Assembly (NCBI GenBank): GCA_951406725.2 | Contig: OX597814.1 | Coordinates: 71,424,001 to 71,488,000, forward strand | From: Octopus vulgaris | Lineage: Eukaryota | Direction of reading: 5' to 3' | DNA length: 64,000 bases | Part shown: positions 28,554 through 34,433 of the stretch, in pieces | How the letters are laid out: every line of letters begins with the position of its first letter | Position numbering within the stretch: the first letter of the stretch is position 1 | The notes under the pieces: generated by a model | What the model was told of the DNA's origin: nothing | Database searches by the model: none | What the model saw: the letters and a program-made list of their open reading frames with translations, nothing else | Made by a program: the position numbers and the translations under genes

Positions 28554-29264
28554 CCGGTTCCGACAGGGAAAGTCGTGTATCGCCTTTGCTCTGTTTAAAA
28601 AAGGCAGAAAATGTGCATAAATCGGTGAAATAATCTACTGAAAGTCACAAATTCAACTCATAAAGTTCACTACAACACTTCGGTTACAAATATATTAATC
28701 AAAAACGTAATATATTTTGCATGAAGCCAAATACAGTAATAATTTTTCTTTTCGCCGAAAACGCACATGGTGGAAAAATCCACTGAAGTAACTTATCTCC
28801 TGGAAGAAGGAAAAAGAAACATCTCCTGGAAAATAATCCCGTAAACCACAAAAAATCCAGACCACATCGTTGGATTAAGTATCACTTTTGATCTTCTATT
28901 TCATATTTTGTTTATTATCCTATTTTATCCCCCTTAACTTAAGCCCACATCTCCGTTAAAGTTATGATCGCCATTTTTGTTTGTTTACATTTCAATATCT
29001 GTTCTCGAAGGCAGAAATTGGCTTCAGAATTAAATAACCCTTTCTTCACACTTTAATATATATATATTTTAATATATTTTCACTCATTTTTCTTTTTTTC
29101 CACCTTCCTTCTCTCCCCGTCTGTGTTTATGTGTGTGCACGTGTATGTATGTGGGTGTGCGTGTATGTATATATGTATGCGTATATATGCATGGACGTGA
29201 ACTTTCACGAACTTTAGATAGATATATATTCTTTCCCCTCTTTCTTACCCTCTCATCTCTCCTC

Positions 29265-29992
29265 TTTCAGATACTCTATCTTCTAATTAGCCTTAAGATT
29301 AAATAACGTTTAATATTGTTTAACATTGTTAATAATTTTTCAGATACTCTATCTTCTAATTAGTCTTAAGAATAAACAACGTTTTTACCCACACTTTAAC
29401 ATCTTCTAATTTTTTACCCACACTCTAATATCTTCTAATTAGCCTTTTTACCCACATTTTAAATATTTGTTAATATATTTTCAGATACTCTATCCTCTAA
29501 TTAGCCTTAAGATTAAATAACGTTTTTACCCACACTTTAATATATTTTTGAATACTCTATCTTCTAATTAGCCTTAAGATTAAATAACGATTTTTACCCA
29601 CACTTTAATATAATAGTAATATTGTTAACATATTTTCAGATACTCTATCTCCTAATTAGCCTTAAGATTAAATAACGTTTTTACCCACAAACTTTAATAT
29701 TGTTAATATTAATAATACTCTATCCTCTAATTAGCCTTAAGATTAAATAACGTTTTTACCCACACTTTAATATATTTTTGAATACTCTATCTTCTAATTA
29801 GCCTTAAGATTAAAAAAAAAAAACATTTTTACCCACACTCTAATATAATATTAATATTGCTAATATATTTTCAGATACTCTATCTCCTAATTAGCCTTAA
29901 GATTAAATAACGTTTTTACCCACAAACTTTAATATTGTTAATATTTTTTTTTTCCAAATACTCTATACTCTATCTTCTAATTAGCCTTAATA
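29265..29992 (+). repeat. Tandem ~55-70 bp units (ATACTCTATCTTCTAATTAGCCTTAAGATTAAATAACGTTTTTACCCACACTTTAAT) in the LINE 5' region
   Basis: About 10-11 imperfect copies visible. Confidence 0.88.
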
Positions 29993-30051
29993 TCTTCTTG
30001 TCTTCTCTCGAACATAGTTAGATAGATAAACAAATAGACAGATCATCCAGC

Positions 30052-30954
30052 ATGTCCAGAGCATGGAGACCTGACGAACTAGACTTATTCGTACGAGCCT
30101 GGAAGTGCGCCGACGGAGATAGCCCTAGCGAGGTGATTGCGGCTGCGCTGAAGAGCAAAGGCTACAAGAGGACAGCGGCTCAGATGGAGCGAAAGAGACA
30201 GGAATTCGTGCGCTCATATGCGCTTATACCGTCGCACATTGGCACACTTGATGCCATCTTTGAGAACGAGCGGGGCAAAGATGGCAAGAATGGAGATGAT
30301 GAAAGAAGTCACCCCCACCTGGTGGACGCCCGGGAGGAGGTTTTGAATGAGAAACCTGACCGGGAAGTGAACCCAGGTGCAAGTTCTCCAACCGGCAGCA
30401 AGGGCCATGGAGACGGAGAACCCGGTGAAGAGGTAGAGGGAGGAGGAAGAACTAAAAGAAGGGCTGGAAGAGCTAAAAGAAAAGCTCAAGCAGGACCAAA
30501 GGGTGAAAAAACCAGGAATAGAAGTGGAACCGCAAAAGATGGAAACAAACAGCGCACACGGGTGTGTAGGTTCTACCTGAGAGGTTCCTGCTGGCATGGA
30601 AAGGAAGGTGCAGGCTGCCGCTTTGCACATTGGGGACCCTGCCACAGACACACGAGGCAGATGGACAAACCAACACAAGGAAAAGGGATGGACCACGCAC
30701 CACTTGCCCCAAAGCGGAGGTACGCAGATGTTGTGCGTGCCACAAACCACCAACATGATGTTGTCGAAAGGGCAGCTGCTGAGCAACAATCTTTTTTGTG
30801 CATGGCACAAAAGATTGTACAGCAGCTGACCTGGCTTCATCAAACCCAAGCCTGCAGGTGGGACTACCCACTATATACCAGACCACCACAGCAAACAGAC
30901 CCAGGATGGACACCACCGGCAACAACATACACCTCACCTCGATGCTCCTACTGA
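30052..30954 (+). CDS. LINE-A ORF1 (300 aa): Myb/SANT(trihelix)-like N-terminus, basic linker, CCCH zinc finger
   Basis: WRPDELDLFVRAW..IAAALKSKGYKRTAAQMERKRQEFVRSY; CRFYLRGSCWHGKEGAGCRFAH; homologous to 44309-45262. Confidence 0.88.
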   Translation: MSRAWRPDELDLFVRAWKCADGDSPSEVIAAALKSKGYKRTAAQMERKRQEFVRSYALIPSHIGTLDAIFENERGKDGKNGDDERSHPHLVDAREEVLNEKPDREVNPGASSPTGSKGHGDGEPGEEVEGGGRTKRRAGRAKRKAQAGPKGEKTRNRSGTAKDGNKQRTRVCRFYLRGSCWHGKEGAGCRFAHWGPCHRHTRQMDKPTQGKGMDHAPLAPKRRYADVVRATNHQHDVVERAAAEQQSFLCMAQKIVQQLTWLHQTQACRWDYPLYTRPPQQTDPGWTPPATTYTSPRCSY

Positions 30955-33887
30955 ACATCAGAGGACTGCAAACACTCAGTAACAGGACAAAAATCCCGTT
31001 CCTGAGAGACTTTGTTGCATGCAATCAAGCCTTATGCATAGCACTTACGGAAACGCATCTGAAACCGGATATAGCAGATGCGGAGTTACACATACCACAG
31101 TATGCTGTACTACGGACCGACAGGAAAGAAAGGAGTCATGGAGGTGTTGCTATGTACATCCGTGAGGACCTCACACCCCAGGTCCTCTTGTCATACTCAA
31201 ACTCGGTGTGTGACACACTAATTGTACATATTAGGCAAATTGATGTAGTTGTGTGTGCTACATATCGCCCTCCAGATGCCCCAAGCCATGTGGGCAAGTT
31301 TGAAGACTGCCTTATAAAAATAGAAGTTCTAACCACATTAGAACAACACATAAGTGTACTTCTTATGGGAGACTTCAATCTGCCCAATGTCAGATGTGAC
31401 AAGATGTGAATGACAAGATGTGAACAAGGACAGGCGAGGTCCCTCCTGAACCTCATCAACACCCTGTACATGGAGCAGGTAATACTCCAACCAACCAGGG
31501 CAGGTAACACACTGGATCTCTGCTTCACAAATGACATGGATCTCATCCATAATGTGAAAGTGACACCGACACTACTCTTGGATCACAACATGATAGAGCT
31601 GACCATGTACGGGCCAAAAGAGAGCACGGACATGCAGCCTACAAGAAACCCTCAGAATCTTTCCAGCTTGAACTACCATAAGGCAAACTGGAAACAAATT
31701 GAGAAAGAGATCCTCAAACAAAACTGGCCTAAATGTCTCTCCTCGCCAGACATCGACGTGAAACTTCAACAATTCATGTCTGTAATGCAAGCCATATGCT
31801 ACAAATGTGTCCCAGAGAGAAAGGCCACTGTACACAAGAACAAAATCCCCAGAGAGAGGAAAATTTTAATGAGACGGCGTACAAAATTTTCAAATCGCCT
31901 AAACAAACAGATTGAAAGCAGTGAAAAGTCCCGCCTGAAAATAAAACTGTTGGAAATCGAAAAATGTCTGAAACTCTCCCATGAAAAAGAAAGAGCAGAC
32001 AAAGAAGCCTGGGCTATAGACAACATAAAATCTAACCCCAGAGCTTTCTACAGGTATGCCAAAGAAACAGCTACGGTGCACTGTAGAATAGGGCCACTCC
32101 TCGAAAAGGATGGCACACTTACAGGAAAACCAATGAGGGTAAGTGAAATACTGAATGAGCAATTCAAGAGTGTTTTCACTCCACCCCTTGGGCATCTCCA
32201 AATCACCAATCCAACTGACATTTTTACCACTGCAGATATAAAATCAGAGGCGGCGACGATAGATTACATCGATATAAAGGAAGACGATGTAATCAAGGCT
32301 ATAGATGAAATGAAAACAGACTCAGCTACTGGCCCCGATGGATTCCCGGCAATCCTCCTAAAAGCATGTAAGAGAGTCCTAGCAAGAACACTGCAGTTCC
32401 TCTTTCAGAGCTTCCTTGCAGCTGGCAAACTCCCAAGAAAACTGAAGGAAGGTAAAATATGCCCCATTCATAAAGGAGGTAGCAGAGCGGAAGCCAAGAA
32501 CTATAGACCTATCTCTCTGACCTCACACATCAGCAAGGTCATGGAACGAATAGTCAGAAGGAAGCTGATCACCTTCCTTGAAGAGAATGACTTGCTGCCC
32601 GACACCCAACATGGTTTCCGACCAGGGAGAAGCTGTTTAACTCAGCTCCTACAACACTATGACTGGGTGCTGAAACGGCTGCTCAACCACTCAAATGTGG
32701 AAGTGATATATCTCGACTTTGCAAAGGCCTTTGATAAAGTCGATCATGGAATGATATGTCACAAACTGCGTGATCTCAACATAGTTGGAAAACTGGGAGA
32801 ATGGCTTCATGACTTTCTGAAAGATAGAAGTCAGGTGGTAGTGGCCAATGGGGCCACTTCCATTAACACGCAAATAGTGAGCGGTGTTCCACAGGGCACT
32901 GTTCTGGGACCACTACTGTTCATAATGGCCCTCTCAGACATGCCCTCAGCCACGCAGAGAGCCACGATCACAAGTTATGCAGATGATACAAAAGTTTCAC
33001 AGGCAATACAGAACCCTGAGGACACTAAACACCTGCAATGTGAGCTAGACAAAATATACAAGTGGGCCGAAAAGAATAGCATGCAGTTCAATGCTGAAAA
33101 GTTTCAAGCTCTATACTATCAGCATGCAAAACTAAATGCAATACCCAATGAATACACTGGACCCGGAGGAATAGCAATCCCAGAGGCACAATCAGTGCGT
33201 GACCTAGGTATTTACATGAGTGATGACGCGACCTTTCGTGTACATGTTGCTAAATTGGCAATGAAATGTAGACGACTGGCCGGATGGATCCTCAGAACCT
33301 TTAGAACAAGAGAACAAGAAACCATGATGGTCCTCTGGAGGACACTTGTCCTAAGCCACTTTGACTACTGCTCTCAGTTATGGTCACCATCCAGTGTCAA
33401 GTTGATCACAGAGCTCGAGGCGATCCAACGTAGCTACACGAAGAAGATAGCCTCTATGCAGAATGTAAGCTACTGGGAAAGACTCAAGAGATTAAAATTA
33501 TATTCCCTGGAGCGTAGGCGGGAAAGATATGCCATAATATACATCTGGAAGATCCTGGAGGGACGTGTCCTGAACTTTGGCATCGAGAGTTACGCAAATG
33601 CCAGAACTGGGCGCCACTGCGTGGTGCCTAGGACTCCAAACTTGCCATCAAGATGTAGGACAAGATTCTGTGATAGCCTGGGCTTCCGAGGCCCACAGCT
33701 CTTCAATATCCTCCCGAAGAACCTGAGAGACCTGCATGGGGTGGATGCAGATGTCTTTAAAATGAAGCTGGATCTCTTCCTGTCAGGTGTCCCAGATGAA
33801 CCAACTTCACGGCAGGAGGGGCAGATGAGGGCAGCTGCATCGAACTCTCTCATGCACCAAATGGCAGTTGCTAGAAAGCTTTCGTGA
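30783..33887 (+). pseudogene. LINE-A ORF2 (APE endonuclease plus RT) in the -1 frame; one in-frame stop at 31407-31409 from a local deletion/duplication
   Basis: LLNIRGL, ALTETHL, GGVA, YRPP, MGDFN, LDL, DH (APE); [37 protein letters not shown] (RT). Confidence 0.95.
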
Positions 33888-34433
33888 AGTGAAACCAAGT
33901 AGCAACACCAAATGGCGGTGCCCCAGCATGGCCACAGCTCATAAGCTGAAACTAGAATCAATCAATCAATCAATCAAACATATATATATATATATATATA
34001 CATATTATATTATATTGAGGGTACTACTATTCGTAGATACCAACACGCTAAGAGGGACCAATGCGGTCAAAACTACTAAAAATAAACAAAATTTTACCGA
34101 ATGCAAAACTTCAAAACACATCATTTTAAAAAAGAATTCAGTTACATATCACATGTGATTTCGCATTTAATGCAGAATATGCATTTCATGTTTGTCAGTG
34201 CAACAAACTCAAGAAATATAAGAAAAAACATAACATTACAAACTCGATAGCCAACCGTAGAATTCGTCGTAGCTTGTACGAATGTTTATCCTTACATATC
34301 TATGAAAATGGCGGGCTTTTTCGCAATGCATTTCGGTAACAAATTGCCTAGTTGGAATAAAAATTCAGTATTGAACTATTCCGGTGAAAAATATAAATTA
34401 ACAATTGTTAATTTATATATATATATATATATA

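Follow-up and report, generated by a model that had tools for sequence, protein, structure and literature searches.

A conserved −1 slip-site signature at the ORF1–ORF2 junction of a CR1-like LINE clade

TRE5-A and TRE3-A, L1-clade non-LTR retrotransposons of Dictyostelium, are stated to need a −1 frameshift for ORF2 synthesis (available text of PMC5911963). The LINEs described here resemble them as two-ORF APE-RT elements with a putative −1 frameshift into ORF2, but belong to a different clade and host; the Dictyostelium elements have a zinc finger at the C terminus and insert at tRNA genes (PMC5911963, same portion), whereas the site described here is a heptamer conserved across a metazoan-type CR1-like clade. 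A second parallel is offered by gag-pol expression in retroviruses and LTR elements, where an in-phase X XXY YYZ heptamer lies near the end of the first ORF and the second ORF follows at −1 (PMC5009743, in the part available). The HIV-1 shift site named in that part, U UUU UUA, is identical to the heptamer of families C and E and of the outside loci L173, L176, L179 and L293 introduced below, and neither U UUU UUG nor A AAU UUU was found named there. Unlike gag-pol systems, the present elements are of the non-LTR type, no protease domain was detected in them, and they possess no conserved stem-loop or pseudoknot at 5–9 nt. The frameshift passages in the accessible portion of PMC11835228 concern ALV.

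Other bicistronic LINEs initiate ORF2 separately. Mammalian L1 ORF2 is described as initiating independently of an AUG, by a mechanism called unknown (PMC5009743, available part), and ORF2 of Candida Zorro3 initiates in an AUG-dependent manner (PMC1965478, available part); the two ORFs do not overlap in either element. Like these, the elements described here are bicistronic LINEs that would need little ORF2p; in contrast, they possess a −1 overlap of 150–410 nt that carries a slip site. For groups 1–3 of the Paramecium non-LTR elements, ORF2 recoding has been proposed from consensus sequences, but by +1 frameshifting or reinitiation, or by stop readthrough, and never at −1 in the available text (PMC5405496). 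The CR1/L2 elements of the Jockey superfamily share with ours an APE-RT ORF2, variable ORF1 modules, a 3′ stem-loop and a short tandem tail; the words CCCH, Myb and frameshift are absent from the main text of that source as available (PMC4120745). No report of −1 frameshifting in CR1/L2-group LINEs was found in the literature searched, mainly the main texts of open, recent papers. We regard the −1 recoding signature described here as real and as conserved across a CR1-like clade.

The window, by which we mean the whole 64-kb stretch of DNA that was analysed, lies on contig C1 of a host assembly of 2.8 Gb in 227 contigs. It harbors several APE-RT LINE copies of two CR1-like families, A and B (Table 1), that share about 68% DNA identity in ORF2. 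The copies display the traits of APE-type non-LTR elements: an ORF2 in which APE precedes RT, 5′ truncation, and a 3′ tandem tail. Both near-complete copies carry a broken ORF2; the family A copy has a premature in-frame stop at 31407–31409, and the frame of the family B copy is broken near 44170. The family A 5′ region is matched over 63–858 nt in 15 of 29 other A loci, and its degenerate tandem units resemble a monomer promoter.

Table 1 Features of the LINE copies in the window
Feature	Position	Strand	Remark
Family A element	~29.26–33.98 kb	+	near-complete copy
Family A 5′ region, degenerate 67–75 nt tandem repeats, likely 5′ UTR	29261..30051	+	TRF
Family A ORF1, 300 aa	30052..30954	+	
TGA in the −1 frame, family A	30780..30782	+	9 nt ahead of heptamer
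ORF1/ORF2 overlap, family A	30783..30954	+	−1 frame open, heptamer to APE
Family A ORF2 (APE and RT)	30783..33887	+	Exo_endo_phos and RVT_1 matches
Family A heptamer T TTT TTG (U UUU UUG), candidate −1 shift site	30792..30798	+	in phase with ORF1
ATG at ORF1 Gly-Trp junction (PGW), rival start site	30906..30908	+	
Second in-frame ATG, 4 codons ahead of APE Asn	30942..30944	+	A lineage only; ATA or GTG in some copies
Family A 3′ UTR: conserved terminal motif and stem-loop, (AATC)n tail, then (TA)n	33888..33978	+	
Family B ORF2 (APE and RT)	41378..44567	-	no AUG ahead of APE
Family B ORF1	44309..45262	-	35% identity to A ORF1
Family B hairpin, starting 19 nt past the site	44426..44478	-	z −3.5; specific to B
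Family B heptamer A AAT TTT (A AAU UUU)	44498..44504	-	in phase with ORF1
Second family A copy	51793–48436	-	5′-truncated
Heptamer T TTT TTG in the second family A copy	51648..51654	-	

An earlier note on this DNA had proposed that a −1 ribosomal frameshift joins ORF1 to ORF2. The underlying positions were confirmed: family A ORF2 lies in the −1 frame and opens immediately after a TGA, T TTT TTG is present in phase and is retained in the second A copy, A AAT TTT is in phase in family B, and the two ATGs stand in frame in family A. In the ORF1 frame, the A heptamer is read within TCT TTT TTG (S-F-L) and the B heptamer within AGA AAT TTT (R-N-F). The two sites had been called homologous; while both families possess an in-phase heptamer, the B site is displaced one codon 5′, such that a shared Phe codon occupies the P site in A and the A site in B. 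In B, 188 nt separate the end of the heptamer from the APE Asn codon. The junction displays three features of canonical −1 frameshift sites: an in-phase X XXY YYZ heptamer, an open −1 frame, and conservation of the site beyond what the amino acids need.

On comparative sequence evidence, we consider it probable that ORF2 is made by −1 ribosomal frameshifting at the conserved heptamer, as an ORF1–ORF2 fusion. At the site, most ribosomes would stay in frame and yield free ORF1p, comprising a Myb-like unit, a CCCH-like motif and a C-terminal helix. The minority that slips, at U UUU UUA/G (A AAU UUU in family B) and about midway along the predicted terminal helix, would go on through a Thr/Pro/Ser-rich linker of 50–63 codons into APE-RT; in the fusion, the second half of the terminal helix and the tail of ORF1 would be replaced by linker, APE and RT. 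What is observed are the reading frames and the heptamers with their conservation and enrichment; from these we infer slippage, a fusion product and little ORF2 relative to ORF1.

Conservation was queried within the host genome by fetching 30 of the 40 best matches for each of families A and B, with further families recovered by pattern and DNA searches. Among junction-spanning copies, the exact heptamer is present in 29/30 young A, 27/37 older A, 28/30 B, 13/14 F, 7/14 G, 5/14 C, 5/13 E and 7/29 D copies; the old families C, D, E and G have degraded copies. By majority, A, older A, F and G have U UUU UUG, C and E have U UUU UUA, and B has A AAU UUU. In the alignment, heptamer and open −1 frame are kept in all seven family majority sequences (A, older A, B, C, E, F, G); in each, the −1 frame is open from site to APE while the +1 frame is closed. 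Indels in the overlap between families are all multiples of 3, and the 9-nt spacing between TGA and heptamer recurs in families C, E, F and G. In family B the Leu codon has been lost, yet another canonical heptamer occurs one codon upstream. Family D departs from this pattern: across a hypervariable A-run, its register is −1 in just 7 of 29 copies, +1 in 15 and 0 in 7. For the lineage of this genome, the choice of slippery codons given the amino acids has p ~0.025; the open −1 frame alone is weak evidence (p 0.10–0.72), and the families do not count as independent cases. Directly 3′ of the site, synonymous codons are conserved to the same degree as those of APE (0.57 vs 0.57), with no excess. 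The worry that U UUU UUG, with G as its last letter, is a poor slippery sequence was eased by its replacement of U UUU UUA in several families and, independently, in the outside locus L297; it is still the weaker variant. In one family F copy (L365/L399), the linker has lost 2 nt from a CA repeat, which places ORF1 and ORF2 in a single frame of at least 813 aa; this one-frame form is a single copy without sign of activity.

The six-T run of the heptamer raises the alternative that joining of the frames takes place in the RNA, through splicing or because the polymerase slips on the run, and one T more or less is indeed found at the site in 1/30 young A and 6/37 older A copies. The run is, however, always held in the same ORF1 phase, the in-phase-only enrichment described below is needless for polymerase slippage, and the heptamers of family B and L285 are written in other letters; we regard joining at the RNA level as extremely improbable. 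None of the sequencing runs listed as containing the element is recorded as RNA. In four runs that we presume to be of RNA, contigs span ORF1 as well as the junction; no GT..AG joint occurs among the matches listed for them, though contigs cannot prove absence.

Relatives outside the genome were sought with an alignment of 55 of 171 ORF2 homologues, which retrieved 80 metagenome loci and 80 loci from prokaryotic genome bins; the LINE contigs in the latter (L284–L363) are probably eukaryotic host contamination. A scan of viral contigs yielded 2 weak loci. Of the 160 outside loci, the APE start is included in 85, and in 54 of these ORF1 can be read up to the junction, which lies at −1 in 29, in frame in 15 and at +1 in 10. 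In a FastTree phylogeny of 66 rows, the elements of the window fall within a 19-row clade of support 100, which forms a separate long branch. The tree holds no named clade references; the label ‘CR1-like’ is suggested by sequence motifs, and may stand for CR1 in the strict sense, L2, Daphne, Crack or Kiri.

All four outside members of the clade with a readable junction (L173, L176, L179 and L285) combine the −1 register with a heptamer; L173, whose contig begins late in ORF1, was admitted under a relaxed rule. In L173, L176 and L179, U UUU UUA stands exactly 9 nt past a −1 UGA, no AUG precedes APE strand 1, and the site coincides with the same D/E-x-x-x-F-L motif, which is followed by a comparable helix-like tail. 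The heptamer of L285 is A AAA AAC. On a different branch, L293 (U UUU UUA) and L297 (U UUU UUG) carry their heptamers at the same motif. Slippery codon choice given the amino acids has p 0.022–0.055 in L173, L176, L179, L293 and L297, and 0.27 in L285; the open −1 frame has p 0.013–0.077 in these six loci, and the open −1 frames of the outside loci extend over 52–133 codons. The exact 9-nt distance between −1 UGA and heptamer was observed in five distant lineages (window 30780–30798, L173:121–140, L176:2536–2555, L179:1403–1422 and L293).

Enrichment was evaluated over 26 outside −1 loci, after setting aside L240, which has no overlap, and the near-duplicates L304 and L309. A strict in-phase heptamer is present in 20 of the 26 and absent from 6. 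Counted per position, heptamers occur at 22/1521 in-phase positions against 5/2990 out of phase (p 4e-7), an approximately 9-fold difference, and the same 22/1521 in the overlap compare with 20/8175 in upstream ORF1 (p 4e-8); these p-values treat positions as independent, but neither positions nor related elements are entirely so, and the values are therefore optimistic. A heptamer lies within 8 codons of the last −1 stop in 14 of 27 loci (L309 kept), as compared to 12 of 828 other −1 stops. The ten +1 junctions contain no heptamer in 328 codons. The comparative evidence for the proposed frameshift reaches well beyond the two families for which it was first put forward. The proposal as a whole is supported in part; its hairpins and its R2 likeness are discussed below.

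The 15 in-frame junctions among the 54 mostly run across a single stop (L181, L182, L206, L209, L214, L223, L226, L336, L359 and others). Seven have UGA-C and L181 has UAG CAA CUA, and the junctions resemble readthrough contexts; 12 of the 15 possess no AUG before APE.

Hairpins about 30 nt downstream of the site had been suggested for both window families. Hairpins do exist in both but are neither shared between them nor conserved in older A copies, and they are unlikely to act as stimulators. The 5-bp family A hairpin (30833–30852) belongs to a stretch that folds with z +0.5; downstream folding in family A is no better than that of shuffled sequences (z 0 to +1.5). Family C has a hairpin about 18–19 nt from the site (z −1.7), and L173 alone has one at about +7 (z −2). 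Across the families, no stem-loop or pseudoknot recurs at the usual 5–9 nt spacing: RNAalifold detected no conserved 3′ structure (SCI ≤0.13 over 7 family sequences), and a simple scan for H-type pseudoknots, the check that had been called for, returned none that was significant against shuffles in 13 sequences. Pairing with the 3′ end of the element was likewise unsupported in a duplex scan of 9 elements and by visual inspection of the 3′ ends of A, B, C, E, F and G; the best duplexes (z about −3) are those expected from the best of ~400 windows and share no common place. The missing stimulator lowers our confidence in −1 frameshifting but does not exclude it, because stimulators that act without intra-mRNA pairing are known, for example in Semliki Forest virus (PMC5009743, available part). 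Since the search for a 3′ RNA stimulator was negative, we expect slippage to be either inefficient or dependent on a non-structural cue. A slip site devoid of an RNA stimulator would be of interest for the recoding field.

The in-frame AUGs and the position of the ORF1 stop bear upon a different account, in which ORF2 has a start of its own. Ribosomes would reinitiate once past the ORF1 stop, or start internally or by leaky scanning, either at an NUG codon 16–23 codons before APE or without any AUG, as proposed for mammalian L1 (PMC5009743, available part), and the heptamer would be a by-product of a conserved x-Phe-Leu helix. The ORF1 stop is positioned at the APE start in every family, and in both A and B it overlaps the codon for the APE Asn by one base, the first. 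An NUG-G codon, mostly with a purine at −3, occurs at the same place in all six families and is the chief support for this account: at PGW, young A, F and G have AUG, older A, B and E have GUG, and C has UUG. The homologue P0001 also has Met at this position, but P0002 has Glu, and the NUG is imposed by an ORF1 Trp codon, its first base varying like a free synonymous site. An in-frame AUG of some kind is found between site and APE in 5 of 6 families (A, C, E, F, G); outside B, these AUGs are mostly by-products of ORF1 Trp or Cys codons and differ in position between families. Counted in codons back from the APE Asn, they lie at 16 and 4 in young A, at 32 and 4 in the majority of older A copies, at ~18 in F and at 16 in G; in family E an AUG sits directly at the heptamer in 5 of 10 copies. 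As the earlier note had maintained, family B has no AUG upstream of APE in the −1 frame (0/30 copies). The TURBS-like motif UGGGA is not conserved in the aligned overlap. Separate initiation also leaves unaccounted for the slippery codon choice in distant lineages, the replacement heptamer of B, the long open −1 frames of outside loci and the phase-specific enrichment, and we judge it unlikely.

A mixed scheme was also weighed, in which frameshifting is ancestral and the AUG families (young A, F, G) produce free ORF2p from their AUG, whether beside the fusion or in its place. These families share one AUG, at PGW, in a good Kozak-like context, and it is retained in 28/28 frame-intact young A and 11/11 F copies; the same families have the weaker heptamer ending in G and no hairpin. 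Against this, older A combines U UUU UUG with GUG at PGW (AUG in 6/31 copies), and AUG and terminal G are therefore uncoupled. We hold the mixed scheme to be very improbable, and retain −1 frameshifting at the heptamer as the preferred reading. Four other sequencing runs commonly show 30906 A>G as well as 30944 G>A; among the variants listed for these runs, none falls inside the heptamer.

ORF1 of family A is organized as an N-terminal three-helix Myb/SANT-like unit, a CCCH-like motif, a C-terminal helix (aa 224–267) and a Pro/Gln-rich tail. The Myb and CCCH domains previously ascribed to it correspond to weak matches, both under the Pfam cut-offs (Myb_DNA-bind_4, 14.7 bits against 27; zf-CCCH, 16.6 bits against 20.5). 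A structure model predicts three N-terminal helices at pLDDT 73–87, and the top two Foldseek matches of this unit are MYB and SANT domains, but with E 1.8. The shift site maps to Ser247-Phe248-Leu249, inside the predicted C-terminal helix. No ORF1 homologue was recovered among 1843 candidates of similar length, nor was there a usable ESM Atlas match. ORF1 of the same-clade element L176:3–2750 possesses a pair of PHD fingers along with CCCH-like motifs and gave no match to Myb.

R2 elements have a single ORF with a C-terminal restriction-like endonuclease and no APE. The ‘R2-like architecture’ that had been suggested for the fusion is at most a loose analogy: a Myb-like unit and zinc finger would precede RT on one chain, but the elements in the window have two ORFs and an APE domain ahead of RT, and lack a C-terminal restriction-like nuclease.

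If retrovirus-style slippage operates in this clade and in many of its CR1-group relatives, the active enzyme would be an ORF1–ORF2 fusion, which would change the annotation of these elements, the view of how ORF1 modules could steer insertion, and the design of constructs for retrotransposition assays. A broader conjecture, which we offer tentatively and regard as doubtful, is that a large part of the CR1/L2 group makes a Gag-Pol-like ORF2 fusion by recoding, alternating between −1 slippage and stop readthrough by lineage; here, a stimulator-free module (−1 UGA, 9 nt, U UUU UUA/G) would cut the terminal helix of ORF1 and tether its reader, of Myb or PHD type, to the endonuclease; insertion of this family into (TA)n repeats might be explained in this way.

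All 18 element tails inspected (window 33955–34000 and L399–L436) are directly followed by (TA)n, as compared to 396 of 3000 random positions, and 5′ truncation points often adjoin (TA)n as well; this adjacency suggests that the LINEs may target TA microsatellites. The short repeats L408, L415, L422, L428 and L430 share the 3′ terminal motif and stem-loop of the LINE behind unrelated 5′ parts and are likely its partner SINEs. Elsewhere in the window, positions 23823–25277 hold part of an RT with a PHD-like finger and an AT-hook-like motif behind it, a different type of retroelement, and positions 126–929 a Mariner-type transposase fragment (PF01359).
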